In this document: one piece after another, positions 5,396-58,421 of the stretch
Numbering within the stretch: position 1 is the stretch's first letter
How the letters are laid out: each line of letters opens with the position of its first letter
Source of the DNA: a virus
Lineage: Duplodnaviria > Heunggongvirae > Uroviricota > Caudoviricetes
Virus record (IMG/VR): IMGVR_UViG_3300023371_000069
DNA length: 58,841 nt
Strand: one strand, 5' to 3'
Notes under the pieces: generated by a model
Seen by the model: only the letters and a program-made list of their open reading frames with translations
What the model was told of the DNA's origin: nothing
Database searches by the model: none
Made by a program: the position numbers and the translations under genes

Positions 5396-5465
5396 CGCGG
5401 CCCTAGCTGCCATGCAATAATACCCTACACAAAAAAAGTTCTACACATTTGTGCATCTTACCTAT

Positions 5466-5494
5466 TGACAAACATCCTGTAATGTGGTATACTG
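5466..5494 (+). promoter_or_regulatory. class 1 early promoter (TTGACAAA-17-TGgTATACT)
   Basis: Consensus -35 and extended -10, followed by a leader and an ATG. Confidence 0.6.
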
Positions 5495-5521
5495 TAGATA
5501 CAACAAAGGAACAGTGAGGTA

Positions 5522-5803
5522 ATGACAATGAGTGAGAAGGTACTGTGTGTGCTGTGTGCTATACTACTGGTAGTGACCTTCAATGCACTAGGTCAAGCAC
5601 AGCTTAATGATAGGTACACAAGAGAAGCTGTGGTAGTAGAGGTAGAGGGTAACACCATCAGCGCAGAGGACACCACAGGCAATGTGTGGTGCTATGATGT
5701 AGAGGGTGACACTGTACCATGTGTAGGCACAAGGGTAGTGCTAACCATGCTAGCCATGGGCAGTGATACTATCTATGATGACAGAGTAGTAGATGTAGAG
5801 TAA
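5522..5803 (+). CDS. small secreted or lipoprotein-like protein
   Basis: Has an N-terminal signal-like hydrophobic segment. It is promoter-driven and ends in TAA. Confidence 0.5.
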   Translation: MTMSEKVLCVLCAILLVVTFNALGQAQLNDRYTREAVVVEVEGNTISAEDTTGNVWCYDVEGDTVPCVGTRVVLTMLAMGSDTIYDDRVVDVE

Positions 5804-5926
5804 GGTACACAGCCTTACTCTATTATACTATGTAGTAGTAGCCACCGAGCACAGGCGTCAGGTCCCCTAGTGGGGCATACTGTAGGGGGTGCTAAAAAAA
5901 AGTTGCGTAAATAAGCAAAAAAACTC

Positions 5927-5955
5927 TTGACAAAAAGCTCCCGTAATGCTATAAT
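5927..5955 (+). promoter_or_regulatory. class 1 early promoter
   Basis: TTGACAAAaagctcccgtaaTGcTATAAT. Confidence 0.6.
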
Positions 5956-6008
5956 AAAGACACAAAGAGAGAGGGACACAACCTCACAGAGTAAAGGAGA
6001 TAACAACA

Positions 6009-6164
6009 ATGACCATTTCTAACAACATCGCTATGTGGATTGCTAACAGCAACCTTGACAATACTACTACTTGTCCTGAGTGGCTGGGTATCACTCTTGT
6101 GGCTCTAGTCGTAGCCTTTGGCGTAGCTGCTATTGCCACTATCATCGCTGTCAACAAGAACTAA
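6009..6164 (+). CDS. small membrane protein (51 aa)
   Basis: ATG follows AAGGAGA. It has one transmembrane helix and ends in TAA. Confidence 0.5.
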   Translation: MTISNNIAMWIANSNLDNTTTCPEWLGITLVALVVAFGVAAIATIIAVNKN

Positions 6165-6181
6165 TAGAGGAGGACAAGACA

Positions 6182-6403
6182 ATGAACAAGAGACCTATCA
6201 ACAAGATGCTGAGCACAGTAAGAGAGCTAAAGCCTGAGGTGCAGGCAAGCCATCAGTACAAGTACATCATCATGGTACTGAACAAGGACAACGAGGACAT
6301 CACCTACGCAGAGAAGCTGATGGTGAGAGACAACCTGCGTGTGCTGTGTAAGGTAGCAGGTGTGTCCTATGAGAGACTGCTGATGAGGGTGTGCCAAGAG
6401 TAA
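6182..6403 (+). CDS. hypothetical protein
   Basis: ATG has GAGGAGG upstream and lies in frame within track ORF 6080..6403. Confidence 0.5.
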   Translation: MNKRPINKMLSTVRELKPEVQASHQYKYIIMVLNKDNEDITYAEKLMVRDNLRVLCKVAGVSYERLLMRVCQE

Positions 6404-6443
6404 GGCACACCCTTTAATTGTGCAATGTGACGAATCCCGCCAT

Positions 6444-6468
6444 AGGCGCGCCAACGGTCCTGGCGCGC
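6444..6468. terminator. GC-rich hairpin (GGCGCGCC...GGCGCGCC)
   Basis: Perfect inverted repeat. It is the first of a family of GC hairpins placed after early operons. Confidence 0.5.
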
Positions 6469-6553
6469 CCTAATTGCCAGTATAACACATCCCAGCCATT
6501 TTGTCAAGAGGAAAATTAGAAAAAAAATAAATAATTATTTTTCCCAAAAGGTA

Positions 6554-6582
6554 TTGACAAATCGGTCTCCGTGTGGTATACT
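6554..6582 (+). promoter_or_regulatory. class 1 early promoter
   Basis: TTGACAAAtcggtctccgtgTGgTATACT. Confidence 0.6.
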
Positions 6583-6615
6583 AAGTACAACAAAAGAACA
6601 AAGGAGCTAAACACC

Positions 6616-6939
6616 ATGAAGAAGATTACCAAGACTGCCGAAGAGACCAAGAGAGACGAACTCGTCATCGCTACTCGCAATGCAAAGGACAAGATTGAGT
6701 ACTGTGTGAGAGTCATCAACCGCAGACAGAAGGCAATGGCTATGTTGCCCCAAGAGTCCGCAGAATACAAGATGTTTGCGGGCGATGTAACCGAGGATAA
6801 ATGGGTACTGGTTTCCGCTCTGCGTAGCTACGACAGAGCAAGGGAAGAACTGGCTGAGCACTGCCGAGCCTACCACCTCGCAGGAAATACTTTCCTTTCT
6901 GGCTATGAACTTTTGGAAATTCTCGCAGAAAAGGCTTGA
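6616..6939 (+). CDS. hypothetical protein
   Basis: ATG follows the leader aaaggagctaaacacc. Confidence 0.5.
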   Translation: MKKITKTAEETKRDELVIATRNAKDKIEYCVRVINRRQKAMAMLPQESAEYKMFAGDVTEDKWVLVSALRSYDRAREELAEHCRAYHLAGNTFLSGYELLEILAEKA

Positions 6940-6964
6940 CAAAAGCCTTTCTCTGTGATACAAT
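6936..6964 (+). promoter_or_regulatory. class 1 early promoter
   Basis: TTGACAAAagcctttctctgTGaTACAAT. Confidence 0.55.
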
Positions 6965-6990
6965 GTAGGTACAAAAGGAAAGGAACTGAA

Positions 6991-7431: not shown

Positions 7432-7438
7432 AAAGGGG

Positions 7439-7467
7439 TTGACAAAACCCCTTTCCCGTGTTATAAT
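7439..7467 (+). promoter_or_regulatory. class 1 early promoter
   Basis: TTGACAAAacccctttcccgTGtTATAAT. Confidence 0.6.
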
Positions 7468-7498
7468 TAAGATACAAAAAGAGAGGAGAGTAAATCAA

Positions 7499-7825: not shown

Positions 7826-7828
7826 GGG

Positions 7829-7857
7829 TTGACAAATCCCTAAATCTATGGTATAAT
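7829..7857 (+). promoter_or_regulatory. class 1 early promoter
   Basis: TTGACAAAtccctaaatctaTGgTATAAT. Confidence 0.6.
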
Positions 7858-7887
7858 TTAATTACAAAAAGAAAAGAGGTAAACGAA

Positions 7888-8043
7888 ATGAGTAAGAAAA
7901 AGAAAAACACAATCGACCGCAGAATGTTCAAGAAAGAGGGAGAAGAACTTCAGCAGTATCTCCACTTTCGCAAGCGTGGCTCTGTGGTAGAAAGCAAGAA
8001 GAAATACAACAGACAGAAATTCAAAAGGGGTGATAATGGATGA
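7888..8043 (+). CDS. small basic protein
   Basis: ATG follows aaaagaggtaaacgaa. The protein is Lys/Arg-rich. Confidence 0.45.
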   Translation: MSKKKKNTIDRRMFKKEGEELQQYLHFRKRGSVVESKKKYNRQKFKRGDNG

Positions 8044-8264
8044 TTATTAAAGGGGCAGATGGTGAGTACGAAGCCACATGGAAGCTCGGCGAAGACTATG
8101 TTCATGTAGTCTATCGAAAGATAATTCATCCCAATTGGCCCATTTTCCGCACAAAATACTACTATTGCACAGTAATTCACAAAGAAGATTTCAACCAGAA
8201 GCGAGTGCGGGATGCTCTCCTTGTTAGAGAACATTACGAAAAAAAATGTGCTTGCGGGGGTTGA
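8040..8264 (+). CDS. hypothetical protein
   Basis: Overlaps the previous stop with ATGA. Confidence 0.45.
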   Translation: MIIKGADGEYEATWKLGEDYVHVVYRKIIHPNWPIFRTKYYYCTVIHKEDFNQKRVRDALLVREHYEKKCACGG

Positions 8265-8289
8265 CAAAATCCCCAAACCATGTTATAAT
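8261..8289 (+). promoter_or_regulatory. class 1 early promoter
   Basis: TTGACAAAatccccaaaccaTGtTATAAT. Confidence 0.6.
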
Positions 8290-8593: not shown

Positions 8594-8599
8594 TTATTT

Positions 8600-8760
8600 C
8601 CATTATACCACAGCCCCAGCAATTTGTCAATAGGCAATTTGCACAAAAAATAAATAGTTGTTTTTCCTAAAATTGTGCTTGACTTTCTATTCCGGATGTG
8701 ATACAATGTTCTTGTGGTTGAGAGAGACCACTAAATCAAAAAAAAGTTCAAGAAAATGAA
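8600..8760. repeat. conserved intergenic unit, also seen near 6470, 10390, 12560, 14210, 15815, 17150 and 18165
   Basis: Shared sequence block (tTTCCATTATACCAC.GCCCCAGCAATTTGTCAA.AGG...TTGCACAAA...). Read on the minus strand it gives TTGACA-17-TGGTATAAT. A plus-strand promoter TTGACT-17-TGATACAAT lies at its end. Confidence 0.5.
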
Positions 8761-8769: not shown

Positions 8770-8798
8770 TTGACAAACCGGGAAACTGGTGTTATAAT
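8770..8798 (+). promoter_or_regulatory. class 1 early promoter
   Basis: TTGACAAAccgggaaactggTGtTATAAT. Confidence 0.6.
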
Positions 8799-9339: not shown

Positions 9340-9368
9340 TTGACAAATCACGGTTTTGGGTGTATAAT
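9340..9368 (+). promoter_or_regulatory. class 1 early promoter
   Basis: TTGACAAAtcacggttttggGTgTATAAT. Confidence 0.6.
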
Positions 9369-9862: not shown

Positions 9863-9892
9863 TTGACAAACGGCAATTGATGTGCTATAATT
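9863..9892 (+). promoter_or_regulatory. class 1 early promoter
   Basis: TTGACAAAcggcaattgaTGTGcTATAAT. Confidence 0.6.
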
Positions 9893-10446: not shown

Positions 10447-10475
10447 TTGACAAATCCCAAAAGGTGTGATACAAT
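10447..10475 (+). promoter_or_regulatory. class 1 early promoter
   Basis: TTGACAAAtcccaaaaggtgTGaTACAAT. Confidence 0.55.
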
Positions 10476-10934: not shown

Positions 10935-10964
10935 ATTGACAAATCAAACAATCTGTGCTATAAT
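10935..10964 (+). promoter_or_regulatory. class 1 early promoter
   Basis: TTGACAAAtcaaacaatcTGTGcTATAAT. Confidence 0.6.
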
Positions 10965-11682: not shown

Positions 11683-11712
11683 TTGACAAATTCAAAATCA
11701 TGTGCTATAATT
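11683..11712 (+). promoter_or_regulatory. class 1 early promoter
   Basis: TTGACAAAttcaaaatcaTGTGcTATAAT. Confidence 0.6.
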
Positions 11713-12158: not shown

Positions 12159-12188
12159 TTGACAAACCCCCAAGAGTGTGCTATAATA
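12159..12188 (+). promoter_or_regulatory. class 1 early promoter
   Basis: TTGACAAAcccccaagagTGTGcTATAAT. Confidence 0.6.
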
Positions 12189-12482: not shown

Positions 12483-12760
12483 CAAACCAAGAGCCATCCC
12501 GCAAGGGGTGGCTTTTTCATTTCAATTTTTGGGCGCGGCGCCCTCGGATGTGGGCGCCGGAATTTCCATTATACCACACCGCCAGCAATTTGTCAAGAGA
12601 AAAGTTACACAAAGTTTGATTGATTTGAATTCCTGTTTTTGTGCATTATTACCTATTGACTTTTGGTGCGGTCTGTGGTATACTATCATTGTCAAGGGGA
12701 GATAGGTGAGCCTGCCCCCAAGGGCGAAAAAAAAATCTCAAAAAAAATTGAGAAAACCCC

Positions 12761-12789
12761 TTGACAAACCCCTTAAAGTGTGATACAAT
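12761..12789 (+). promoter_or_regulatory. class 1 early promoter driving a non-coding transcript
   Basis: TTGACAAAccccttaaagtgTGaTACAAT. No ORF follows within about 220 nt. Confidence 0.5.
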
Positions 12790-13047: not shown

Positions 13048-13076
13048 TTGACAAACAAATCAAGATGTGCTATAAT
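13048..13076 (+). promoter_or_regulatory. class 1 early promoter
   Basis: TTGACAAAcaaatcaagaTGTGcTATAAT. Confidence 0.6.
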
Positions 13077-13586: not shown

Positions 13587-13615
13587 TTGACAAATCCCTC
13601 TGTCTGTGCTATACT
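13587..13615 (+). promoter_or_regulatory. class 1 early promoter
   Basis: TTGACAAAtccctctgtcTGTGcTATACT. Confidence 0.6.
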
Positions 13616-14266: not shown

Positions 14267-14295
14267 TTGACATTTCCCATTATCGGGTGTATAAT
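14267..14295 (+). promoter_or_regulatory. class 1 early promoter
   Basis: TTGACAtttcccattatcggGTgTATAAT. Confidence 0.55.
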
Positions 14296-14542: not shown

Positions 14543-14572
14543 TTGACAAACATCCAAAAGTGTGCTATAATA
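14543..14572 (+). promoter_or_regulatory. class 1 early promoter
   Basis: TTGACAAAcatccaaaagTGTGcTATAAT. Confidence 0.6.
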
Positions 14573-14888: not shown

Positions 14889-14918
14889 ATTGACAAACAG
14901 AGAGATTTGTGCTATAAT
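14889..14918 (+). promoter_or_regulatory. class 1 early promoter
   Basis: TTGACAAAcagagagattTGTGcTATAAT. Confidence 0.6.
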
Positions 14919-15428: not shown

Positions 15429-15458
15429 CTTGACAAACTCCACCAAATGTGCTATAAT
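15429..15458 (+). promoter_or_regulatory. class 1 early promoter
   Basis: TTGACAAActccaccaaaTGTGcTATAAT. Confidence 0.6.
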
Positions 15459-15769: not shown

Positions 15770-16008
15770 AACCCTCGCTTTTTGCGCGGCCCGGGCGCGA
15801 CTGTGCCCGGCCGAATTTACCATTATACCATGCCCCGCACAATTTGTCAAGAGGAAATGTTGCACAAAATAATCTTTTTAATTTTCCTGTAATTTGTGCA
15901 GTTTGCCTATTGCAATTCGCTTTTGGATGTGGTATACTATCTATGTCAGTAAGGGAGAGACCCAAGCGGACAGACCGAAAAAAAGTTTGAAAAACTTAAA
16001 AAAACCTC

Positions 16009-16038
16009 TTGACAAACCCCCAAAGATGTGATATAATG
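16009..16038 (+). promoter_or_regulatory. class 1 early promoter (first of a tandem pair)
   Basis: TTGACAAAcccccaaagaTGTGaTATAAT. Confidence 0.55.
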
Positions 16039-16105: not shown

Positions 16106-16135
16106 TTGACAAATCGCTCAACCTATGATATAATA
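16106..16135 (+). promoter_or_regulatory. class 1 early promoter (second of the tandem pair)
   Basis: TTGACAAAtcgctcaaccTaTGaTATAAT. Confidence 0.55.
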
Positions 16136-16608: not shown

Positions 16609-16638
16609 AAAGGTCTTGACAAACCGCCCAAGATGTGC
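16609..16638 (+). promoter_or_regulatory. class 1 early promoter
   Basis: TTGACAAAccgcccaagaTGTGcTATACT. Confidence 0.6.
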
Positions 16639-16669
16639 TATACTGTAAGTACAGAAAGGGGGTAAACCA

Positions 16670-17373: not shown

Positions 17374-17402
17374 TTGACAAACAGCACAAGATGTGCTATA
17401 AT
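17374..17402 (+). promoter_or_regulatory. class 1 early promoter driving a non-coding transcript
   Basis: TTGACAAAcagcacaagaTGTGcTATAAT. No ORF follows for about 200 nt. Confidence 0.5.
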
Positions 17403-17636: not shown

Positions 17637-17666
17637 TTGACAAACTCAAAACCATGTGCTATAATA
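17637..17666 (+). promoter_or_regulatory. class 1 early promoter
   Basis: TTGACAAActcaaaaccaTGTGcTATAAT. Confidence 0.6.
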
Positions 17667-18456: not shown

Positions 18457-18486
18457 TTGACAAATTATTAAGTCTGTGCTATAATA
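18457..18486 (+). promoter_or_regulatory. class 1 early promoter
   Basis: TTGACAAAttattaagtcTGTGcTATAAT. Confidence 0.6.
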
Positions 18487-19186: not shown

Positions 19187-19216
19187 TTGACAAATCTCCA
19201 AGAATGTGCTATAATG
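19187..19216 (+). promoter_or_regulatory. class 1 early promoter
   Basis: TTGACAAAtctccaagaaTGTGcTATAAT. Confidence 0.6.
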
Positions 19217-19726: not shown

Positions 19727-19756
19727 TTGACAAGTGCGGCCCGGTATGGTATAATA
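19727..19756 (+). promoter_or_regulatory. sigma70-like promoter followed by a GC-hairpin-rich untranslated region
   Basis: TTGACAagtgcggcccggtaTGgTATAAT. Positions 19760-19960 carry several GC palindromes. Confidence 0.45.
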
Positions 19757-20068
19757 ATGGTGGGGTTCAACGGGCCGCGGACGGAGGCCAAGGCCCGATT
19801 TTCCGACCGGTACACCCCATATGCAAATTTTTTGCTACTTCTAGCGACTTTTCATATGCACTTAATTTTCCCGTAAAGTGAGCCCCGGTCGGGAGCCGAC
19901 CGGTCCTACAAAAACCGCCCGCATATACGCGGGCCGACCGGTAAAAATATGTTTTTTTAATATTATAACATATTTTTTTATAAAAATCAAGGCCGAACGG
20001 CCATTTGATTTTTATAAAATTTTTTTGTATAATAATAATACAATAAGAAAAGAAAGAGGTATATACCA

Positions 20069-22994: not shown

Positions 22995-23023
22995 TTGATT
23001 TTATAAAAAATTTATGATATAAT
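22995..23023 (+). promoter_or_regulatory. class 2 promoter cassette (TTGATT-17-TGaTATAAT plus conserved ATATATGTAAgATAAAGAAAG leader)
   Basis: First of about 22 near-identical cassettes. Confidence 0.6.
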
Positions 23024-27093: not shown

Positions 27094-27122
27094 TTGATTT
27101 TCTGAAAAAATTTTTGTATAAT
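27094..27122 (+). promoter_or_regulatory. class 2-like promoter
   Basis: TTGATTttctgaaaaaatttTTGTATAAT. Confidence 0.5.
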
Positions 27123-27405: not shown

Positions 27406-27410
27406 AAAAA

Positions 27411-27437
27411 TAGACCCTCTGGTTTTCAGAGGGTCTA
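27411..27437 (+). terminator. rho-independent terminator
   Basis: TAGACCCTCTGGTTTTCAGAGGGTCTA. Confidence 0.65.
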
Positions 27438-27466
27438 TTGATTTTTATAAAAAAATATGATATAAT
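27438..27466 (+). promoter_or_regulatory. class 2 promoter cassette
   Basis: TTGATTtttataaaaaaatatgaTATAAT. Confidence 0.6.
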
Positions 27467-29366: not shown

Positions 29367-29371
29367 AGATA

Positions 29372-29400
29372 AGAAGCCTACTAGATGCTAGTAGGCTTCT
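29372..29400 (+). terminator. rho-independent terminator
   Basis: AGAAGCCTACTAGATGCTAGTAGGCTTCT hairpin followed by TTGATTTTT. Confidence 0.65.
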
Positions 29401-29429
29401 TTGATTTTTATAAAAAAATATGATATAAT
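29401..29429 (+). promoter_or_regulatory. class 2 promoter cassette
   Basis: Cassette consensus. Confidence 0.6.
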
Positions 29430-30399: not shown

Positions 30400-30428
30400 T
30401 TGATTTTTATAAAAAAATATGATATAAT
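30400..30428 (+). promoter_or_regulatory. class 2 promoter cassette
   Basis: Cassette consensus, followed by the ACAGCAA motif. Confidence 0.6.
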
Positions 30429-30470
30429 ATATATGTAAGATAAAGAAAGACATTAACAGCAATTTCAATT

Positions 30471-30560
30471 TGCCTGTCACGCCGGGGGTTGCAGGTTCGA
30501 GTCCTGCCTGGGTCGCCACATGGCCCAGTAGCTCAACTGGTTAGAGCGACGTTATGTAAT
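30471..30560 (+). other. permuted tRNA-like element: 3' part (anticodon loop CTGTCAC, T-arm, acceptor 3' strand, CCA) placed directly upstream of a matching 5' part (acceptor 5' strand and D-arm)
   Basis: GCAGGTTCGAGTCCTGC T-arm, then CTGGGTCGCCA. 4 nt later comes GGCCCAGTAGCTCAACTGGTTAGAGC. The acceptor strands are complementary. Confidence 0.4.
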
Positions 30561-30716
30561 ATGTCTTGTATCTTGACCGACAGCAGATGGAGTCGTAAAA
30601 CTGGCTAGTGAGGTTGTGGGCAGGTAATCCAAAATGACAAAACCTATCCCCCTGGGAGTTTGCGGTCTCGCCAGAATAATATCCAAAACCGCATCACATT
30701 TGAAAGGATTGATACT

Positions 30717-32628: not shown

Positions 32629-32657
32629 TTGATTTTTTATAAAAAATATGTTATAAT
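32629..32657 (+). promoter_or_regulatory. class 2 promoter cassette
   Basis: Cassette consensus, preceded by the GGAGCCTTAGGGCTCC hairpin. Confidence 0.6.
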
Positions 32658-34412: not shown

Positions 34413-34437
34413 TTTTTTCAAAAAAATATGATATAAT
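34409..34437 (+). promoter_or_regulatory. class 2 promoter cassette
   Basis: Cassette consensus. Confidence 0.6.
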
Positions 34438-36184: not shown

Positions 36185-36213
36185 TTGATAAACATGAAAA
36201 AATTTTGTATAAT
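36185..36213 (+). promoter_or_regulatory. sigma70-like promoter
   Basis: TTGATAaacatgaaaaaatttTGTATAAT. Confidence 0.5.
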
Positions 36214-36234: not shown

Positions 36235-37056
36235 ATGCGTTTTTGTGTAAGTGGCAGACAGCCATATTCAGTTATTAAAATTGCTGACGAAATCAAGTTT
36301 GCATATGCTGATAAGGATAGAATTCTTGACCTCGTTGAAAAGTACCCTGAAAAGACAGTAATTCTTGATGTTCCCGGCCATGAAGGCGATTGGAAGCTAT
36401 GGGAAATGTATAGTGAGAAGTTTGCGGAATTCTATATCGCTCTTCATGATTTAAGTAGAGTTGCTGAATTTAATCAAGCTGGTATCAAATGGTATTGGCC
36501 TTATCCAATTACATCTTATTATGAGTTATCAATGATTGTTAATTTGCATCCAAGTTATCTGATGATTGGTCCTCCGCTAACATTTGATTTGGATAAGATT
36601 GTTCCCCATACATATGATGATAGTGTCGAGGAAAATGCAACACCAATTCCTTTGCGAATGGTGGTTAATGTTGCGCATCCTGCATATCTCCCAACCAATG
36701 GGACACACGGTATGTGCGGCCAGTGGGTGCGCCCGGAAGATGCTAACTTATATGCAACCCGCATCAACTGTTTTGAGTTTGATGAATGCGCTACCCTAAA
36801 GGAAGAAGAGGTTCTATTGAATACTTATAAGTCTGGCACATGGCCCGGTAACTTGAATCTAATTATTAAAAAGTTAGATTTCAACGTTGATAATCGCGCA
36901 ATTCCAGAAGAATTGGGAGAAAGACGAATGACTTGCGGCCAACGATGCTGGTCTGGCTCAGGATGTCATTTGTGTGTGAGCGCGTTTAGGTTTGCCGACC
37001 AGATTCGAAAAGAGCACCTTCGTCGCAACCAGAAGGACGATATTGACAATAATTAA
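36235..37056 (+). CDS. hypothetical protein
   Basis: Track ORF of 273 aa. Confidence 0.5.
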   Translation: MRFCVSGRQPYSVIKIADEIKFAYADKDRILDLVEKYPEKTVILDVPGHEGDWKLWEMYSEKFAEFYIALHDLSRVAEFNQAGIKWYWPYPITSYYELSMIVNLHPSYLMIGPPLTFDLDKIVPHTYDDSVEENATPIPLRMVVNVAHPAYLPTNGTHGMCGQWVRPEDANLYATRINCFEFDECATLKEEEVLLNTYKSGTWPGNLNLIIKKLDFNVDNRAIPEELGERRMTCGQRCWSGSGCHLCVSAFRFADQIRKEHLRRNQKDDIDNN

Positions 37057-37071
37057 AAAAAATGGTATAAT
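37043..37071 (+). promoter_or_regulatory. sigma70-like promoter
   Basis: TTGACAataattaaaaaaaaTGgTATAAT. Confidence 0.55.
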
Positions 37072-40632: not shown

Positions 40633-40661
40633 TTGATTTTTTGAAAAAATTATGTTATAAT
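40633..40661 (+). promoter_or_regulatory. class 2 promoter cassette
   Basis: Cassette consensus. Start of the tRNA array. Confidence 0.6.
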
Positions 40662-40705
40662 ATATATGTAAGATAAAGAAAGGCACTTACAGCAAACTAC
40701 AAATT

Positions 40706-40777
40706 TTTGCGATAGTCAAATGGTTAAGACATTACCCTCCTACGGTGAAAGTTGGGGTTCAAATCCCCATTGCAGTT
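40706..40777 (+). tRNA. tRNA-Arg(CCU)-like
   Basis: D-arm, anticodon arm TTACC/CTCCTAC/GGTGA and T-arm TGGGG/TTCAAAT/CCCCA. The acceptor stem has a 1:72 mismatch and two G:U pairs. Confidence 0.4.
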
Positions 40778-40796
40778 AAATTTAGTGCCTTGATAT

Positions 40797-41069: not shown

Positions 41070-41098
41070 TTGATTTTTATAAAAAAATATGTTATAAT
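41070..41098 (+). promoter_or_regulatory. class 2 promoter cassette
   Basis: Cassette consensus. Confidence 0.6.
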
Positions 41099-41534: not shown

Positions 41535-41563
41535 TTGATTTTTCAAAAAAAATATGTTATAAT
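41535..41563 (+). promoter_or_regulatory. class 2 promoter cassette
   Basis: Cassette consensus. Confidence 0.6.
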
Positions 41564-41655
41564 ATATATGTAAGGTAAAGAAAGTGATATGCACGAATCG
41601 CTTTCGATTCCATACAACCTTTTCCATTAAAAAGACGGTAACAGCAATTAAACGA

Positions 41656-41745
41656 TTGCTTGGGGTGCCGGAAGTCGCAGGTTCGAGTCCTGCCTCCCGC
41701 TCCGCTTATGCGGGAGTAGTTCAGCTGGATAGAACGCCGTATATC
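41656..41745 (+). other. permuted tRNA-like element (3' part with Pro-like loop TTGGGGT, T-arm and acceptor 3' strand, then the complementary 5' part with D-arm)
   Basis: ..GCAGGTTCGAGTCCTGC CTCCCGC TCC, then GCGGGAG TA GTTC AGCTGGATA GAAC. Confidence 0.4.
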
Positions 41746-42039
41746 GAAAAAATCCCGTCTTGAAAAAGTACCAAGAGGCTGATAAGAAATGGGTTAGCTG
41801 CCAAAGTATTTGATGTGAGGTGCCGGTCTGAGTAGCCGTATTGCCGGATAATAGAGCTACAGCGTTTGAGATGGTCAGCAGCCACCCTTTGTCGTTTGCT
41901 ACAAGAACGAAAGATGATTGGCTCGCCCCTAAGGATTATGGACTTAACAGGTGGGTTAAGGCGGATGGTAAAGTCCAATGCTAGTGTGGGTTTGATAGTT
42001 TCCCTCTCTGCGGAGGAAAAACTAATCAAAAAATCTTTC

Positions 42040-42068
42040 TTGATTTTTTACAAAAAATATGTTATAAT
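42040..42068 (+). promoter_or_regulatory. class 2 promoter cassette
   Basis: Cassette consensus. Confidence 0.6.
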
Positions 42069-43930: not shown

Positions 43931-43959
43931 TTGATTTTTTACAAAAAATATGTTATAAT
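43931..43959 (+). promoter_or_regulatory. class 2 promoter cassette
   Basis: Cassette consensus. Confidence 0.6.
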
Positions 43960-48359: not shown

Positions 48360-48388
48360 TTGATTTTTCTTAAAAAATATGATATAAT
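48360..48388 (+). promoter_or_regulatory. class 2 promoter cassette
   Basis: Cassette consensus. Confidence 0.6.
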
Positions 48389-50180: not shown

Positions 50181-50223
50181 GTATTAAATGTCTTTTAGAG
50201 GTGTCTAGCAATTAAATCTTTAT

Positions 50224-50252
50224 TGATTTTCTTAAAAAATTATGATATAATA
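50224..50252 (+). promoter_or_regulatory. class 2 promoter cassette
   Basis: Cassette consensus. Confidence 0.6.
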
Positions 50253-51764: not shown

Positions 51765-51793
51765 TTGATTTTTCAAAAAAAATATGATATAAT
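51765..51793 (+). promoter_or_regulatory. class 2 promoter cassette
   Basis: Cassette consensus. Followed by about 800 nt of ORF-poor sequence. Confidence 0.55.
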
Positions 51794-54393: not shown

Positions 54394-54422
54394 TTGACTT
54401 TGAAAAAAAATTTTTGTATAAT
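54394..54422 (+). promoter_or_regulatory. class 2 promoter cassette (TTGACT variant)
   Basis: TTGACTttgaaaaaaaatttTTGTATAAT. Confidence 0.55.
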
Positions 54423-54523
54423 ATATACATAAGATAAAGATAAAAAAAATAAGACTCATACAGCAAATTTAATTTTGGAACAATCTTTTAAATTGTCAGA
54501 CCAGAAAAAAGAGTCTTGAGTAT

Positions 54524-55563: not shown

Positions 55564-55744
55564 ACGCCGTAAGCCGCGTCCTCAGCCACCTTGGTACTAT
55601 TGGTATGACACAGATGGTTGTTGGGATTGTCCAAATCGAAATGGTTGTTCTGGATGTAAAAGATTAAAAACCTATATTTATGAGCAACAACGGACTAAAA
55701 GAAAAATCGCCCGAGACGAGAAGCGATTCCTTGACAATTCATAA
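55550..55744 (+). CDS. small basic Cys-rich protein
   Basis: ATG is in an overlapping frame. MNRAKRRKPRP.. and CWDCPNRNGCSGC. Confidence 0.4.
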   Translation: MNRAKRRKPRPQPPWYYWYDTDGCWDCPNRNGCSGCKRLKTYIYEQQRTKRKIARDEKRFLDNS

Positions 55745-55759
55745 AATTTTTGCTATAAT
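55731..55759 (+). promoter_or_regulatory. sigma70-like promoter followed by the CAGCAAA motif
   Basis: TTGACAattcataaaattttTGcTATAAT. Confidence 0.55.
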
Positions 55760-55809
55760 AATAATATAAGAAAAAAGACACTTTCAGCAAATTCTACTAT
55801 AAAAAATTA

Positions 55810-55950
55810 AGCCTTCCAAGCCGGATGTCGTGGGTTCGAGTCCCTTCCTCCCCTGCCAGTTCACCTGGCAAGGTGGCGTAGGTGAACTACTAGGGGAACT
55901 TCGGTTCCCTGAATATAGGGGAGTAGCTCAGCTGGTAGAGCGCCGTTAAA
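55810..55950 (+). other. permuted tRNA-like element (Gly-UCC-like anticodon loop CTTCCAA, T-arm and acceptor 3' strand; then 2 hairpins; then the complementary 5' part with D-arm)
   Basis: ..CCTTCCAAGCCGG ATGTC GTGGG TTCGAGT CCCTT CCTCCCC T GCCA. About 58 nt further on comes GGGGAGT A GCTC AGCTGGTA GAGC G CCGTT. Confidence 0.35.
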
Positions 55951-56022
55951 CATTTTTTATGCGTGTCTTGTGTTTTCCGTTCGAGTTATCGAAAAAACAA
56001 GTTATTGTAAAGGAGAATAAGT

Positions 56023-56430: not shown

Positions 56431-56433
56431 TAT

Positions 56434-56508
56434 TGGGGTGTCGTTCAAAGGTTAGGACCGCGGTCTCTAAAATCGCAGATGTCAGTTCGATTCTGACCGC
56501 CCCCGCCA
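56434..56508 (+). tRNA. amber suppressor tRNA-Sup(CUA), type I, Gln-like
   Basis: Acceptor TGGGGTG/CGCCCCC (weak 1:72 pair), disc G, D-arm GTTC/AAAGGTTA/GGAC, anticodon arm GCGGT/CTCTAAA/ATCGC, T-arm GTCAG/TTCGATT/CTGAC, encoded CCA. Same architecture as the Gln tRNAs at 51362 and 51506. Confidence 0.7.
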
Positions 56509-56605
56509 TGGGGTGTATTCTAATGGTAAGAAAAGAGTCTCTAAAACTCCAGGAAGCACGGCTCTGACCCGTGATGTGGGGGTTCGAATCCCTCCACCCC
56601 AGCCA
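56509..56605 (+). tRNA. second tRNA-Sup(CUA), type II (long variable arm, G73, Ser-like)
   Basis: Acceptor TGGGGTG/CACCCCA, anticodon arm (A)GAGT/CTCTAAA/ACTC(C), 27-nt variable arm with a CACGG/CTCTGAC/CCGTG hairpin, T-arm GGGGG/TTCGAAT/CCCTC, encoded CCA. Abuts the previous tRNA with no spacer. Confidence 0.55.
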
Positions 56606-56617
56606 AGTATCGAAAAT

Positions 56618-56645
56618 TGATTTTTATAAAAATTTTTGATATAAT
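56618..56645 (+). promoter_or_regulatory. class 2 promoter cassette
   Basis: Cassette consensus. Confidence 0.6.
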
Positions 56646-56785
56646 ATATATGTAAGATAAAAAAGGCTCTTACAGCAAATCATACACACTTTCTAAAAGA
56701 AATAGAAAATTATATATCCTTCCAAGATATTACAGATGTGAATGACGAGCCTTGTGAAAACTTCGTTTTCACGAAGTGAAAACAT

Positions 56786-56872
56786 CCCGGTGTGGTGGAA
56801 TTGGCAGACACAAGGGACTTAAAATCCCTCGGTGGTGACACCGTACCGGTTCGAGTCCGGTCACCGGGACCA
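56786..56872 (+). tRNA. tRNA-Leu(UAA), type II, intact copy
   Basis: Acceptor CCCGGTG/CACCGGG, anticodon arm AGGGA/CTTAAAA/TCCCT, disc A, encoded CCA. Confidence 0.7.
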
Positions 56873-56946
56873 CAACCTTAAATGAAAGGACTGATTCCAA
56901 TGTACAAGGTGATTATCTTCTAACTATCCAAAAGGAGGTTAGAAAA

Positions 56947-57249
56947 ATGAGTCGCTCTTACAAGCACACTCCGCGCAGCGGAGACACCAAAGATAAGTTC
57001 TTCAAAAAATACGCAAATCGTCGAGTGCGGCGGCTTCCCATCGAGGAGCTTCCCTTAAACAACAAGACCTATAAAAAGGTAACTTGTAGTTGGAATATCT
57101 GCGACTACGAAACAGTCGGCATATCATTTGAGCAATACTGGGATAGTCTTCTCAAAAGCTGGCACAGATGGCGTAAGGGATGCGGACATCCGTACCCAAA
57201 CCGAGACGAAGCGTATCAAGAATACTGTCGTTGGTTTCTAAGAAAATAA
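56947..57249 (+). CDS. small basic protein
   Basis: SD AAAGGAGG. Lys/Arg/Trp-rich. Resembles 55237..55563. Confidence 0.5.
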   Translation: MSRSYKHTPRSGDTKDKFFKKYANRRVRRLPIEELPLNNKTYKKVTCSWNICDYETVGISFEQYWDSLLKSWHRWRKGCGHPYPNRDEAYQEYCRWFLRK

Positions 57250-57250
57250 G

Positions 57251-57279
57251 TTGATTTTTTCAAAAAATTTTTGTATAAT
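57251..57279 (+). promoter_or_regulatory. class 2 promoter cassette
   Basis: Cassette consensus. Confidence 0.6.
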
Positions 57280-57375
57280 ATACTTACAGGAAATAAAGAA
57301 AAAATCTTCTCCCCTTTCTTTAAAGTTCCTATCTTCTCGGGTGGGCTGACACCCCCTCGTTAGTCCACCTTTTCT

Positions 57376-57450
57376 GCGGGTGTAGTACATCGGCTAGTGC
57401 GCCTGCCTTCCAAGCAGGATAGACGGGTTCGATTCCCGTTACCCGCTCCA
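57376..57450 (+). tRNA. tRNA-Gly(UCC)
   Basis: Acceptor GCGGGTG/TACCCGC, loop CTTCCAA, encoded CCA. Confidence 0.7.
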
Positions 57451-57900
57451 TTTTCAATCAATACAAACGAGGCCGTTAGAATCGTAGGTCTATCGGAGTT
57501 GTAGTTATTGATTGAGAACTTCATACTGAGAGCCATACAGCAAATCTAAATTGTACTTTCAAGTACAGCTTGTCGCTACTTCGGTAGCTCTATGATGAAA
57601 CATCTACAATAATAGATTTACTTAAGAAAGAAGAATGGTTTAAACTCAAACTAATCTTTACCGGCTTAGCAGCTCCCCATCTGCCCCATATGTGTTGAGG
57701 CTCTCGACACTTATCATCGCATATGGGGCCGGGGAGTGCTAAATCGGACATAATATTTAATAAGGCACATTCAGCAAATAACCTTATAAAAGAATTTACT
57801 AATTTTAGATGAATTAAAATATGCAAAGCCTTTACATAAGTTATTAGTGCCTTGCAGGGTGTAGGGCATTCGTGCCCTCACCCAATTTTTCTCTTTATAT

Positions 57901-57979
57901 GCGCCGCTAGCTCAGCAGGTTTCAGAGCACCGCCCTTTTAAGGCGGGTGTCCTGGGTTCGAATCCCAGGCGGCGCACCA
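57901..57979 (+). tRNA. tRNA-Lys(UUU)
   Basis: Acceptor GCGCCGC/GCGGCGC, loop CTTTTAA, encoded CCA. Confidence 0.75.
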
Positions 57980-58392
57980 GGGTCAAGTGTGAGAAAGTTC
58001 ATTGGCATCGCTGACGGTAAATGGCAATCTATGTGAAAGGGCCTAAGTAGCATAGTGCGCAAGCATCTCGTAGTTCAGTCGTTGGAGAATCTTAAAGAGC
58101 AACGGATTTCTTGGTTAGGCCAATCAAGAAAGAGGAATTCTGTCGTTAAGTTCCTAATAAAGAAAGCGACACAGCGGGGGTACTATGTGCGAAGAATAGT
58201 ACGCCCCGCATCCCATCTAAACCGGTCTTGCCTTGTGCACTGGGAGAAATTCCTCAAGACCGCCTCATACTGAGGGTACGATTAAGGTTTTACAGTAGGG
58301 ACTAAGTGGCAATCGTGTAACAGGAAATCTGACACGACCTAAGCCCTAAAATTAGCCTTAATCATTGTTTTTTCTAATCCAAAAATCTTTTT

Positions 58393-58421
58393 TGATTTTT
58401 ATAAAAAAATATGATATAATA
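58393..58421 (+). promoter_or_regulatory. class 2 promoter cassette
   Basis: Cassette consensus. Confidence 0.6.

Follow-up and report, generated by a model that had tools for sequence, protein, structure and literature searches.

Overview of the repeated cassettes

Phages of the kind described here are known to place dense promoter arrays ahead of small early genes. Early and middle promoters of staphylococcal Herelleviridae phages are reported to follow the consensus TTGACW-17-TRTGN-TATANT (PMC10383478), which is matched by both motifs that recur in the phage DNA analyzed here. The window, the whole stretch of 58,841 nt, belongs to a large, uncultivated, TAG-recoded phage, as judged by its RF2 gene and two tRNA-CUA. 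Its host is probably a Gram-positive gut or rumen bacterium, a Firmicute. One marker protein would place the phage distantly near the Herelleviridae; the AAA ATPase of the window is 41% identical to that of Bacillus Herelleviridae phages.

Approximately 55 gene or RNA units in the window are preceded by near-identical promoter-leader modules, oriented in the direction of the genes in both classes, where chance predicts about one site or zero for either class. Class 1 comprises 29 plus-strand sites at 5465-19755, with TTGACAAA, 17-bp spacing and TGTGn-TATAAT. Class 2 comprises about 24 sites at 20005-58420, with TTGATT, a T-run/A-run spacer and TATGnTATAAT, followed by ATATATGTAAGATAAAGAAAG. 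A ribosome-binding module, GAAAGGAAnTGATA, is present in both regions (17 plus-strand copies versus 0.2 expected). The most probable reading, at roughly three in four, is that the repeats are promoter-plus-leader cassettes for host sigma-A in a distantly Herelleviridae-like, TAG-recoded Firmicute phage. The sigma-A assignment had been proposed by a sequence-only reading and is borne out at the level of predicted elements: both motifs have the full layout of a textbook sigma-A/sigma-70 promoter, with a -35 element, a 17-bp spacer, a TRTG/TG-extended -10 element and upstream A-tracts. Where transcripts would start, how strong the promoters would be and to which temporal class they would belong follow consensus rules from Bacillus, Staphylococcus and E. 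coli; that the sites fire, which class would do so first and any effect on sigma-A availability are inferred.

Predicted class-1 promoters and an embedded third type

The pattern TTGACAAA-N15-TATAAT was searched across the whole window with up to 2 mismatches and compared with shuffles. It yielded 40 matches versus 1.22 expected (highest shuffle, 7), including the 29 plus-strand sites and 4 minus-strand sites in the same region. A generic promoter scan of the plus strand at 5000-24000 found 22 hexamer pairs that match perfectly (12/12) and stand 17 bp apart, nearly all with TG ahead of the -10 element. The previously described consensus was recovered position by position: phased A-tracts, TTGACAAA, TGTGc, TATAAT and aAa.acA.aAAa.

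Predicted class-1 promoters, all on the plus strand, with the genes that follow:
5927..5955 (+), promoter, 12/12 hexamers with TG; 6009-6164 and 6182-6403
6554..6582 (+), promoter; 6616-6939
6936..6964 (+), promoter, -35 in an AAAGGC/GCCTTT hairpin loop; 6991-7431
7439..7467 (+), composite terminator/promoter, -35 in a GGGG/CCCC hairpin loop, then TTT; 7499-7825
7829..7857 (+), promoter, -35 in the hairpin loop of TTTAGGG/CCCTAAA; 7888-8264
8261..8289 (+), promoter, -35 in a GGGG/CCCC hairpin loop; 8310-8540
8770..8798 (+), promoter; 8836-9309
9340..9368 (+), promoter with GAAAGGAACTGATAC SD module; 9400-9852, HAD-type deoxyribonucleotidase-like
9863..9891 (+), promoter with SD module; 9923-10335
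10447..10475 (+), promoter, TTTGTGCA box upstream; 10506-10910
10936..10964 (+), promoter with SD module; 10995-11654
11683..11711 (+), promoter; 11744-12151
12159..12187 (+), promoter, 5' stem-loop leader; 12240-12482
12761..12789 (+), promoter; about 240 nt without an ORF (12796-13035)
13048..13076 (+), promoter, long structured leader; 13156-13515 (paralog family)
13587..13615 (+), promoter; 13641-14000
14543..14571 (+), promoter with SD module; 14603-14848
14890..14918 (+), promoter; 14943-15422
15430..15458 (+), promoter with SD module; 15491-15769, AbrB/MazE-like
16009..16037 (+), promoter, forming a tandem pair with 16106
16106..16134 (+), promoter, 5' stem-loop leader; 16185-16553 (paralog family)
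16616..16644 (+), promoter; 16670-17041
17374..17402 (+), promoter, 5' stem-loop leader; 17450-17629
17637..17665 (+), promoter, 5' stem-loop leader; 17720-18088 (paralog family)
18457..18485 (+), promoter, 5' stem-loop leader; HD-domain gene 18535-19140
19187..19215 (+), promoter with SD module; 19245-19391
19727..19755 (+), last TTGACA-type promoter; structured RNA of about 200 nt (19762-19960), convergent with 19990 (-)

Class-1 sites lie 20-37 nt upstream of the start codon in 17 of 26 cases, and by consensus rules transcription would start at a conserved A. Many of the leaders, which measure about 25-35 nt, have the ribosome-binding module GAAAGGAAYTGATAC-N-ATG at their end, and some contain a small 5' stem-loop. 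The class is assigned to about 31 small, mostly orphan genes, one or two per copy. Only 6 of 29 match any PHROG family, and only 12 of 32 have homologs in four relatives, in line with genes turning over while the cassettes are conserved. The array would correspond to an early "host-takeover" module.

As a repeated cassette, class 1 stands as first described. Its homogeneity does not, since the original count of 27 mixes in a distinct third promoter class, characterized by an upstream TTTGTGCAA box, TGTGGTATAATGG and copies on both strands.

Predicted class-3 promoters and partners:
5465..5493 (+), class-3-type promoter, upstream TTTGTGCA box, -10 TATACT; gene 5522-5803
6479..6507 (-), promoter; predicted GC-rich hairpin at the transcript start
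8602..8630 (-), promoter, TTTGTGCAA box and TGTGGTATAATGG; predicted transcript GGAAAUAA, GC hairpin, bidirectional terminator
8679..8707 (+), partner promoter TTGACT..TACAAT, divergent from 8630 (-)
12568..12596 (-), promoter; predicted transcript GGAAAUUC, GC hairpin, terminator
12656..12684 (+), partner promoter TTGACT..TATACT, TTTGTGCA box, divergent from 12596 (-)
14267..14295 (+), class-3-type promoter, TTTGTGCAA box; 14325-14507
15822..15850 (-), promoter; predicted transcript with GC hairpin first and terminator last

Class-2 cassettes precede protein and RNA genes

The class-2 block spans about 70 bp and consists of AAAATCTTTC, TTGATT, the T-run/A-run spacer, TATGnTATAAT, an AT-only discriminator and the leader GUAAGAUAAAGAAAG; transcription would, by consensus rules, start at the G after the discriminator. 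The 29-mer TTGATTTTTATAAAAAAATATGATATAAT (up to 3 mismatches) and a 27-mer covering the -10 element and leader each have 12 matches in the window versus 0 expected. A looser regular expression recovered 19 TTGATT-type sites on the plus strand from 20005 to 58392, to which five variants with a -35 of TTGACA, TTGACT or TTGATA (36185, 37043, 54394, 55731 and 1727) and two minus-strand sites (19990 and 26964) are added. From these pattern searches, the initial estimates of about 27 class-1 and about 22 class-2 cassettes are therefore right.

Predicted class-2 promoters, with the units that follow:
19962..19990 (-), promoter facing the class-1 array
20005..20033 (+), first class-2 promoter, divergent from 19990 (-); 20069-20536
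22995..23023 (+), promoter; operon 23157-26346
27094..27122 (+), promoter; 27178-27405
27409..27466 (+), composite terminator/promoter, 14-bp hairpin 27409-27439, promoter 27438-27466; 27516-29366
29371..29429 (+), composite terminator/promoter, hairpin 29371-29401, promoter 29401-29429; 29466-30366
30400..30428 (+), promoter; YrlA-like RNA, then gene 30717-30986
32629..32657 (+), promoter; 32697-34412
34409..34437 (+), promoter; 34497-34910 and RF2 gene 34983-36065
36185..36213 (+), variant TTGATA; 36235-37056
37043..37071 (+), variant, TTGACA -35, AT-only spacer; 37101-39439
40633..40661 (+), promoter; stem module, tRNA-Arg, tRNA-Trp
41070..41098 (+), promoter, leader GAAAGGAAATGATA as SD; 41132-41518
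41535..41563 (+), promoter; YrlA-like RNA and about 270 nt of further RNA
42040..42068 (+), promoter; tRNA-Asn 33 nt past the -10, then 6 more tRNAs
43931..43959 (+), promoter; 41-aa ORF, then about 16 tRNAs
48360..48388 (+), promoter; tRNA-Ile, AAA ATPase gene 48607-49737, 2 tRNA-Pro
50223..50251 (+), promoter with SD module; 50285-50763 and YrlA-like RNA
51765..51793 (+), promoter; ROOL RNA (52033-52624) after about 240 nt
54394..54422 (+), variant TTGACT; stem module, tRNA-Thr
55731..55759 (+), variant TTGACA; YrlA-like RNA, TAG-containing PD-(D/E)XK gene, both tRNA(CUA)
56617..56645 (+), promoter; stem module, tRNA-Leu
57251..57279 (+), promoter; tRNA-Gly, tRNA-Lys
58392..58420 (+), promoter; tRNA-Lys (58595)

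As proposed earlier, one cassette is common to protein genes and tRNA clusters; it precedes operons including RF2, all 39 tRNAs, and also the ROOL and Y-RNA-like RNAs. The accompanying proposal that GAAAGG acts as SD fits several units in which the aligned distance is right (e.g., 41070 and 50223), but at 32629 and 43931 a separate AGAGG closer to the ATG is the likelier SD. The purine-rich leader would be dual-use: as the SD of mRNAs, GAAAGG would pair with the 16S rRNA 3' end, and in non-coding units the same bases would make up the 5' side of a long-range RNA-closing helix. Conservation of the class-2 spacer and leader far exceeds what sigma-A recognition needs; a further factor must contribute, be it a regulator site, an RNA function or gene conversion.

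At 27409-27439, 29371-29401 and within 6936-8289, the -35 element lies next to or inside a terminator hairpin; the U-tract of hairpin 27409-27439 is the TTGATTTTT of the promoter at 27438-27466. Only a minority of cassettes carry such a hairpin.

ACAGCAA belongs to downstream RNA genes

ACAGCAA had been described as often following the class-2 cassette. It follows only 7 of the approximately 24 copies in the window and is not part of the promoter. It belongs to the downstream RNA genes, in which it supplies the 5' side of a predicted helix that shows covariation and closes the YrlA-like modules.

Predicted helices and modules:
30446..30568 (+), Y-RNA-like module, leader AAAGACAT..ACAGCAA pairing with ATGTCTTG
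40679..40792 (+), leader/trailer helix AAAGGCACT..ACAGCAA / AGTGCCTTG, enclosing tRNA-Arg(CCU)
41631..41762 (+), Y-RNA-like module, AAAGACGG..ACAGCAA / CCGTCTTG, Rfam YrlA 48.2 bits
50766..50875 (+), Y-RNA-like module, AAAGGCAC..ACAGCAA / GTGCCTTG, Rfam YrlA 25.7 bits (weak)
54450..54518 (+), short ACAGCAA/CTTG helix, AAGACTC / GAGTCTT, ahead of tRNA-Thr
55774..55970 (+), Y-RNA-like module, AAAGACAC..TCAGCAA / GTGTCTTG, Rfam YrlA 26.3 bits (weak)
56662..56754 (+), ACAGCAA/CTTG helix, AAAGGCTC / GAGCCTTG, ahead of tRNA-Leu

The insert of the module at 30446..30568 is tRNA-like, with a T-arm, a closed acceptor stem and a D-arm; the module scores 41.9 bits against Rfam YrlA, below the gathering score of 69. 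Among the distinct IMG/VR class-2 copies listed, an ATG follows at short distance in 67 of 103 and ACAGCAA in 17 of 103, beginning exactly 6 nt past GAAAG in 15 of those 17. For 53 of the 104 listed leaders, a perfectly matching 7-nt partner that ends in CTTG lies downstream, versus 2 in the upstream control, and the compensating N4 sequences come in no fewer than 14 different versions.

Conservation and probable recombination at cassettes

Relatives with a 58-68% identical HD protein share the layout of a class-1 array followed by class 2. The exact class-2 27-mer occurs at no fewer than 103 loci on at least 80 IMG/VR contigs, and other promoters in the listed loci have the same T-run/A-run, TATG, ATATAT and purine-leader architecture.

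Indels were compared between two 95% identical relatives, L222 and L223 (IMG/VR 3300045988_151351 and 3300026522_000023). Of 20 breakpoints, 12 are no more than 35 nt away from a cassette, versus 17.7% expected (p = 3e-5), and at two junctions the promoter is clearly a chimera of the cassettes on either side. This chimeric-promoter evidence comes from the two relatives and not from the window phage itself; the only 95% relative of the latter found (L203) differs by a nuclease-gene indel without clean cassette boundaries. The cassettes act as recombination seams that mark gene-swap sites. Because they are repeated identities of 30-70 bp, homologous recombination can use them as substrates. Complete promoter-gene units would be gained, lost and exchanged at them, and such exchange would keep the early region hyperplastic.

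Comparison with known phages

The conservation in relatives, the ACAGCAA helix, the third class, the terminator overlap and the breakpoints in cassettes extend the sequence-only reading. Its suggestion that the cassettes may monopolize sigma-A and time expression is plausible by analogy with SPO1, whose host-takeover module the class-1 array of small orphan genes resembles. An analogous cassette, with the leader GTAAGATAAA, is repeated in Enterococcus phage EFDG1. The repeated-cassette design is familiar in phages, and here it would also mark sites of gene exchange: the chimeric junction promoters in the relatives, together with cassette-borne gene exchange, parallel the PeSL cassettes of T4-type phages.

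Class 1 promoter-leader cassettes

The reuse of whole promoter-leader cassettes that the sequence-only reading had described was confirmed, and its interpretation is partly supported. That such reuse may let the phage monopolize host sigma-A or time its expression is plausible by analogy with SPO1. Searching the whole window for TTGACAAA-N15-TATAAT with at most two mismatches yielded 40 matches, compared to 1.22 expected from shuffled sequences, and 29 of the 40 are class 1 sites located from 5465 to 19755 on the plus strand. A generic scan retrieved 22 hexamer pairs that score 12/12 at a spacing of exactly 17 bp on the plus strand of the 5- to 24-kb region, with a TG before the -10 box in nearly all of them. 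The class 1 consensus proposed earlier (A-tracts, TTGACAAA, and TGTGc with TATAAT) was reproduced by a column profile, in which A-tracts phased over about -60 to -36 are followed by TTGACAAA, a variable spacer, TGTGc, TATAAT, a conserved A 7 bases downstream, and a purine-rich leader. Phased A-tracts at these positions and an extended -10 element, TGTGc in class 1 and TATGn in class 2, are sigma-A/sigma-70 hallmarks. The best reading of both classes is that they would act as host sigma-A promoters with built-in leaders.

The class 1 cassettes head approximately 31 genes with a mean product length of 105 amino acids, and the 29 promoters are spread over 14.3 kb. The distance from the -10 box to the start codon equals 20 to 37 nt in 17 of 26 cases. 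In the remaining cases, the leaders are 47 to 79 nt long and form a small stem-loop at their 5' end, with a stem that varies by copy (GGGA/TCCC, AAGAC/GTCTT, AAGTG/CACTT, GGAGC/GCTCC, and others). In addition, the ribosome-binding module GAAAGGAAnTGATA is present in 17 plus-strand copies, against 0.2 expected, distributed over both cassette regions. Only 6 of the 29 class 1 region proteins match a PHROG family, including an HD protein, a HAD-type deoxyribonucleotidase-like protein, and an AbrB/MazE-like protein.

Dense direct repeats that are limited to defined segments could also be replication, packaging, or recombination sites that resemble promoters by chance. Such an origin is hardly credible here. 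The two hexamers lie exactly 17 bp apart and carry a TG extension, the cassettes are co-oriented with every downstream gene at a fixed distance to the Shine-Dalgarno (SD) site and ATG or to the tRNA 5' end, and conservation in class 1 is found only at positions of polymerase contact.

Two paralogous families of small proteins of about 120 amino acids are present in the class 1 region:

13156-13515, first family
16185-16553, first family
17720-18088, first family
13641-14000, second family
16670-17041, second family

Both families were duplicated along with their own promoter and stem-loop leader, and they are among the few class 1 genes kept in all relatives. Since promoter and leader are repeated with the gene, part of the cassette reuse is segmental duplication.

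Downstream of the class 1 promoter at 12761, about 240 nt on the plus strand (12796-13035) are free of ORFs until the next promoter. This stretch folds no better than shuffled sequences (z = -1.3) and has no credible match in Rfam; it may correspond to a gene in decay or to a noncoding transcript. At the boundary of the class 1 and class 2 regions, between convergent promoters at 19727 (plus) and 19990 (minus), lies a GC-rich RNA of approximately 200 nt (19762-19960, plus strand). Its plus strand folds better than 200 of 200 shuffles (z = -3.2, versus -0.55 for the minus strand), and Rfam again gave no credible match. A GC-rich transcript is also found at this boundary in relatives.

A distinct third promoter class

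The earlier count of about 27 class 1 sites needs correction in that several of them form a distinct group, class 3. Promoters of this class occur on both strands and follow the pattern TTTGTGCAA, 8 nt, TTGACAAA(A)TTGCTGG..TGTGGTATAATGG. The minus-strand promoters, each diverging from a plus-strand promoter, and the upstream boxes are as follows:

6479-6507, minus strand, class 3 promoter with -35 at 6507
8602-8630, minus strand, class 3 promoter with -35 at 8630
12568-12596, minus strand, class 3 promoter with -35 at 12596
15822-15850, minus strand, class 3 promoter with -35 at 15850
5448, 10430, 12638, 14250, 15893, and 18211, TTTGTGCAA boxes, about 8 nt upstream of the -35

At 17097-17115, the TTTGTGCAA box occurs as a perfect palindrome. 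The class 3 minus-strand transcripts are predicted to start with GGAAAUUC and a 7- to 11-bp GC hairpin and to continue into the bidirectional terminator of the gene upstream, which would make them approximately 75 to 90 nt long. In single-sequence folds of 15 copies, taken from the window and from four relatives, the hairpin is present in all 15, and the stem sequences differ. RNAalifold returned no structure on a MAFFT alignment of these transcripts, in which the hairpins are out of register, and no Rfam family matched them. A role of the minus-strand RNAs as type I antitoxins was rejected, as the proteins encoded upstream are not small hydrophobic toxins. In the relative L208, some class 3 copies are arranged as convergent pairs around one GC hairpin.

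Class 2 cassettes head protein, tRNA, and noncoding RNA units

The class 2 29-mer TTGATTTTTATAAAAAAATATGATATAAT, with up to three mismatches, and the 27-mer TATAATATATATGTAAGATAAAGAAAG each gave 12 matches in the window, where 0 were expected. A looser search identified 19 copies with a TTGATT-type -35 on the plus strand between 20005 and 58392 and two minus-strand copies. It also retrieved five variants in which TTGACA, TTGACT, or TTGATA at -35 is combined with the AT-only spacer and leader of the class. In 19 copies, the hexamers score 10/12 at a spacing of 17 bp. Class 1 and class 2 differ in their -35 (TTGACAAA versus TTGATT), in their spacer (free versus an invariant T-run/A-run palindrome), in their discriminator (TAAGAC versus ATATAT), and in their inferred initiating base (A versus G), which could permit differential control.

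Class 2 cassettes head longer operons, including the RF2 unit, as well as every tRNA cluster, the ROOL RNA, and several further noncoding RNAs. The sequence-only reading was therefore correct that one cassette serves both proteins and tRNAs. It had also assigned GAAAGG as the SD site, which fits units such as 41070 and 50223, where GAAAGG could pair with the 16S rRNA 3' end at a normal aligned spacing, whereas at 32629 and 43931 an AGAGG nearer the ATG is the likelier SD. ACAGCAA, which had been noted as often following the cassette, does not belong to the promoter; it follows the class 2 leader in RNA units, as part of the covarying-helix module.

The region under class 2 control in this reading is rich in tRNAs and contains elements linked to recoding. 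All 39 tRNA genes are on the plus strand (40706-58671), two of them with anticodon CUA; a long extra arm is present in one of these two. TAG serves as stop in 1 of 66 called genes, and at least four ORFs are intact only with TAG read-through. RF2, a suppressor tRNA(CUA), and TAG read-through make up the amber-recoding kit reported in gut phages (bioRxiv 10.1101/2021.08.26.457843; PMC10879173). The features concerned are the following:

34983-36065, RF2 with PCRF and RF-1 domains and SPF and GGQ motifs
56434-56508, plus strand, tRNA(CUA)
56509-56605, plus strand, tRNA(CUA)
535-1587, minus strand, ORF of 350 amino acids, intact only with TAG read-through
22047-22751, minus strand, winged-HTH gene, intact only with TAG read-through
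39516-40244, DUF2726-like nuclease, intact only with TAG read-through
56023-56430, PD-(D/E)XK nuclease, intact only with TAG read-through
53105-53512, PD-(D/E)XK nuclease (PF11645)
52033-52624, ROOL RNA (312.6 bits, full length), about 240 nt downstream of the class 2 promoter at 51765

The nuclease at 56023-56430 matches PF11645 after TAG is translated. The two PF11645 genes, one of which has three TAG codons in frame, are located inside the tRNA array and are probably homing-type mobile nucleases. Theta (HDV-like) ribozymes adjoin suppressor tRNAs in recoded phages (PMC10879173); a search of 50.7 to 58.8 kb gave no HDV-like Rfam match at E values up to 0.05.

Directly after the ROOL RNA, a 136-nt sequence (52631-52766) has a weak tRNA score of 33.3 bits; it may represent a tRNA interrupted by an insertion or an element that resembles a tRNA. 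Another stretch of about 400 nt (57980-58390), between tRNA-Lys and the class 2 promoter at 58392, is free of ORFs. It contains a partial match to the OLE RNA (58280-58363; 53.5 bits against a gathering score of 50) that covers only model positions 439 to 592. This may point to part of another large structured RNA, or the match may have arisen by chance or at the level of a domain. The winged-HTH gene is flanked, at 21990-22050 and 22700-22880, by six or more iteron-like repeats of about 17 nt (GTCTAAATTTTTTAACA and variants), which could serve as an array of autoregulatory operators or form a region resembling a replication origin.

Recognition and possible regulation of class 2

Spacer and leader of class 2 are nearly invariant in the window, although sigma-A promoters normally accept any spacer, as seen in class 1. 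It is possible, though less likely than not, that class 2 is regulated instead of being a plain constitutive sigma-A promoter, with the T5-AT-A7 palindrome of the spacer and/or the first 21 transcribed bases as the site of a putative factor. This factor, which could be a dimeric repressor, an HU/TF1-like protein, a CodY-like regulator, or an RNA-binding protein, would switch the RF2, tRNA, and noncoding RNA units on or off and in this way time the code change. Such regulation would add to the best reading and is not an alternative that excludes it. It would fit the perfect palindrome TTTTTATAAAAA, the lineage-specific homogenized spacers (TTAAACAATAAA in 5/5 copies of Enterococcus phage EFDG1 and ATTTAAATAAAATATA in the relative L211), the presence of a winged-HTH gene flanked by iterons, and the location of RF2 and both tRNA(CUA) genes inside class 2 units. 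However, the T-run would double as a terminator U-tract, the AT-only spacer and discriminator may just favor melting, homogeneity within a genome is equally expected from recombination or gene conversion, and the iterons beside the HTH gene are unlike the spacer. A likeness of the spacer to the CodY box (10 to 12 of 15 positions, in AT-rich or AT-only sequence) was not counted as evidence. The extra conservation of the class 2 spacer and leader can partly be explained by use as a terminator U-tract, by use as an SD or RNA-helix strand, and by recombination homogenization.

The conserved nonconsensus -35 TTGATT and the conserved upstream AAAATCTTTC of class 2, like the conserved TTTGTGCAA box at an activator position in class 3, would also suit a phage-modified polymerase or a phage sigma-like factor, with SPO1 gp28 and T4 MotA/AsiA as precedents. 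We regard this as very unlikely for either class: both keep a perfect TG-extended TATAAT 17 bp from a TTGA-type -35, which is enough for sigma-A, TTGACA variants carry the same leader, and no sigma-like or AsiA/MotA-like protein is present among the proteins of the window.

The class 2 leader as a strand of a predicted long-range RNA helix

In IMG/VR copies of the ACAGCAA type, ACAGCAA starts exactly 6 nt after GAAAG in 15 of 17 cases among the matches listed. The AAG-N4 directly before it has an exact reverse-complement partner, N4'-CTT and then G, 48 to 190 nt downstream. This partner is present for 53 of 104 leaders among the matches listed, compared to 2 in an upstream control, and the N4 part takes at least 14 different sequences, all of them compensated. 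Such strong covariation argues that AAAG-N4..ACAGCAA and N4'-CTTG form a long-range RNA helix, the 5' strand of which would be the class 2 leader. In the minimum-energy fold of 30435-30582, pairing begins at the second base of the transcript. Dozens of IMG/VR loci contain this helix as well. A 5' hairpin, GTAAG/CTTAC, was considered as a general trait of class 2 noncoding leaders; it is true for those at 34409, 40633, and 56617 and fails across the IMG/VR copies, so that the long-range helix, which fits the data better, is preferred. The modules in the window are the following:

30446-30568, YrlA-like module, helix with tRNA-like domain
41631-41762, YrlA-like module, helix with tRNA-like domain
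50766-50875, YrlA-like module, helix with tRNA-like domain
55774-55970, YrlA-like module, helix with tRNA-like domain
40679-40792, ACAGCAA/CTTG helix around a real tRNA-Arg
54450-54518, ACAGCAA/CTTG helix around a short hairpin only
56662-56754, ACAGCAA/CTTG helix around a short hairpin only

The four YrlA-like modules enclose a T-arm, a loop-closed acceptor stem, and a D-arm. They align end to end with the Rfam YrlA model (RF02553) at E values of 4e-8, 8e-10, 0.028, and 0.041, all with scores (25.7 to 48.2) under the gathering score of 69. This end-to-end alignment led us to reject circularly permuted tRNA genes, possibly matured through a permuted group I intron, and two-piece tmRNA; the modules also have no anticodon arm or consistent CCA end, and ARAGORN calls no tmRNA.

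YrlA RNAs are Y-RNA-like tRNA mimics known from bacteria and phages (PMC4201824). Like them (RF02553; Chen et al. 2014), the window modules are predicted to carry a tRNA-like domain inside a long stem formed by the 5' and 3' ends of the RNA, which in YrlA RNAs is the stem bound by Ro60. They differ in that the closing stem has its own ACAGCAA/CTTG signature, starts at or near the first bases of the transcript, and also encloses a real tRNA or a mere short hairpin. They differ as well in lacking a TROVE (Ro60/Rsr) gene in the window, none being found among the window proteins scanned or in the precomputed Pfam calls for the same genes.

Firmicutes use 5' elements to stabilize mRNAs, including the STAB-SD of Bacillus thuringiensis cry3A and 5'-terminal stem-loops such as those of the aprE and ermC leaders. 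By analogy, the first 10 to 25 nt of the window transcripts, untranslated ones included, would contain a purine run resembling an SD (AAAGAAAGG) or else a small stem-loop, but in the noncoding units the purine run would be sequestered in the helix. A single short leader would be able to provide the SD of mRNAs and also a structural strand of noncoding RNAs. A wider proposal, which we consider rather unlikely as a whole, is that class 2 is an approximately 70-bp multifunctional module of a large, uncultivated, TAG-recoded Firmicute phage clade. Its T-run would terminate the unit upstream, and its palindromic spacer and invariant leader would bind a dedicated phage factor that times RF2, the suppressor tRNAs, other tRNAs, and large or Y-like RNAs as a code-change switch, with the leader acting as SD in mRNAs and as a Ro/Y-type stem in noncoding RNAs.

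Conservation in relatives

When 14.6 kb and 24 kb of the window were queried by megablast against 50,697 phage records, no close relative was found and only two tRNA matches were returned. The window phage itself recurs in several metagenome assemblies at 99.99 to 100% identity, in contigs of up to 156 kb whose ends fall at different positions. Four IMG/VR relatives encode an HD protein 58 to 68% identical to that of the window and have the same layout: a class 1 array that again carries this SD module and stem-loop leaders, class 3 units interspersed, and then class 2-type cassettes. Proteins were used to find relatives because the class 1 pattern is too generic for this purpose, with 97 IMG/VR loci that are nearly all single matches (one has two).

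The class 2 27-mer occurs exactly at no fewer than 103 loci in at least 80 distinct IMG/VR contigs, many of 100 to 240 kb. In these loci, a sample biased by the 27-mer selection, 352 other promoter-like sites have the consensus TTGA.ttttt..aaaaa.TaTg.TATAAT-AtataTa.aAaataaa. Among cultured phages, the Herelleviridae member EFDG1 (KP339049.1) has five analogous cassettes that precede small hypothetical genes in the opening part of its record (1741-4668), with the structure TTGACA-TTAAACAATAAA-N6-TATAAT and a GTAAGATAAA- or GTAAGGTAAA-type leader in 3/5 copies. The cassette is not annotated in that record. The AAA ATPase at 48607-49737 is most similar to those of Bacillus Herelleviridae phages (approximately 41% identity). 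The nearest cultured matches of the window lineage are Bacillus Herelleviridae, and the lineage is clearly not T4-like.

Recombination at cassettes and putative composite terminator-promoters

Promoter-early stem-loop (PeSL) cassettes of T4-type phages combine a near-perfect TTGACA-N17-TATAAT with a GGGG...CCCC-type stem-loop, and crossovers that join neighboring cassettes at sites between -10 and SD add or delete genes (PMC2839356; PMC4122927). Under the class 1 cassettes, gene turnover is high, with only 12 of 32 genes having a homolog in any of the four relatives. Ten indel or replacement events separate L222 (IMG/VR 3300045988_151351) from L223 (IMG/VR 3300026522_000023), a pair of relatives with 95% identity between them, and 12 of the 20 breakpoints fall within 35 nt of a cassette, compared to 17.7% expected (binomial P = 3e-5). 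Two chimeric promoters were found in these relatives, not in the window's own phage:

L223 9820-9848, promoter with the 5' half of L222 9243 and the 3' half of L222 9820 (L222 9243-9848); crossover in TGTGATA, 576-bp unit missing in L223
L223 12919-12980, promoter joining L222 12561 and 13950 (L222 12561-13978); about 1.4 kb missing in L223

The second join lies inside a 33-nt identical stretch that extends from the -10 through the SD module (TATAATTGATTTATCAAAAGAAAGGAATTGATA). L203, a 95.5% identical relative of the window phage, was rejected as a further crossover case: its junctions are not clean, and it shows loss of the TAG-containing nuclease gene at 39516-40244 and divergence past a class 2 cassette.

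Some cassettes are overlapped by hairpins. At 6936, 7439, 7829, and 8261, a GGGG/CCCC-type hairpin with T's after it carries the -35 in its loop, an arrangement common in the relatives L209 and L210. At 27409-27466 and 29371-29429, class 2 TTGATTTTT comes immediately after a putative terminator stem of 14 bp and is predicted to serve as both U-tract and -35. Most cassettes in the window have no such hairpin.

The chimeric promoters and breakpoint enrichment in relatives, the high gene turnover under conserved cassettes, and the PeSL-like hairpins at -35 in the window and in L209 and L210 (PMC2839356) could indicate that the cassettes are primarily selfish or mobile elements, spreading as mini-circles or by gene conversion, whose promoter look is secondary and many copies of which give little expression. 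This is improbable. Class 1 spacers are free and only polymerase and ribosome positions are kept, which argues for functional selection and not for recent copying, and every copy is aligned with its gene at a fixed distance. Moreover, PeSLs are themselves functional promoters and terminators (PMC2839356). Promoters that also act as recombination seams remain in accord with our reading of the cassettes as host sigma-A promoters.

Comparison with known systems

The early and middle promoters of staphylococcal Herelleviridae (K and vB_SauM-515A1), mapped by RNA-seq and both of sigma-70 type, follow TTGACW-17-TRTGN-TATANT, and these phages have tRNA genes with an adjoining ROOL/GOLLD-like long RNA (PMC10383478). 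At the sequence level, class 1 and class 2 match this promoter consensus. A conserved transcribed leader common to mRNAs, tRNAs, and noncoding RNAs, as present in class 2, is not mentioned in that review (PMC10383478).

The host-takeover block of SPO1 spans approximately 12 to 14 kb and contains some 25 to 30 small early genes, mostly of unknown function, with a strong sigma-A promoter and ribosome-binding site for each gene or pair (PMC6873191). Modules of the SPO1 type lie in the long terminal repeat, are the first to be expressed, and encode products that shut off functions of the host. The class 1 region has the same build in its small genes, dense promoters, and repeated SD module. No homology to SPO1 gp37-60 was seen, and the PHROG families matched by 6 of the 29 proteins carry no SPO1 host-takeover annotation. 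Unlike SPO1, the window phage is TAG-recoded and has another cassette class, of different build, over the remainder of the region. The cassettes provide a testable regulatory map for an abundant uncultivated gut and rumen phage clade, in which a promoter class is assigned to about 31 early orphan genes, RF2, ROOL, Y-RNA-like RNAs, two amber-suppressor tRNAs, and 37 further tRNAs. Their motifs are annotation anchors for such phages and candidate strong promoter/5'-UTR parts for Firmicutes.

With the PeSL cassettes, the window phage and its relatives share hyperplastic regions rich in orphan genes, chimeras with a crossover in the -10 or between -10 and SD, gene turnover, and, in some of the copies, a putative composite build with a hairpin at -35. 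They differ in phage lineage and host phylum, in having the hairpin in only a subset of copies, with the -35 in its loop in class 1, and in having at least two to three cassette classes, of which class 2 also heads tRNA and noncoding RNA units. Judged from their sequences, the window cassettes are an analogue of the PeSLs and not a member, which extends the PeSL idea from T4-type phages of Gram-negative bacteria to a Herelleviridae-like lineage of Gram-positive bacteria. Current understanding is not overturned: the window is an example, in an uncultivated recoded phage clade, of the known ideas of dense early sigma-A arrays and PeSL-like shuffling cassettes, to which it adds the less familiar class 2 leader with two uses and the class 3 units.
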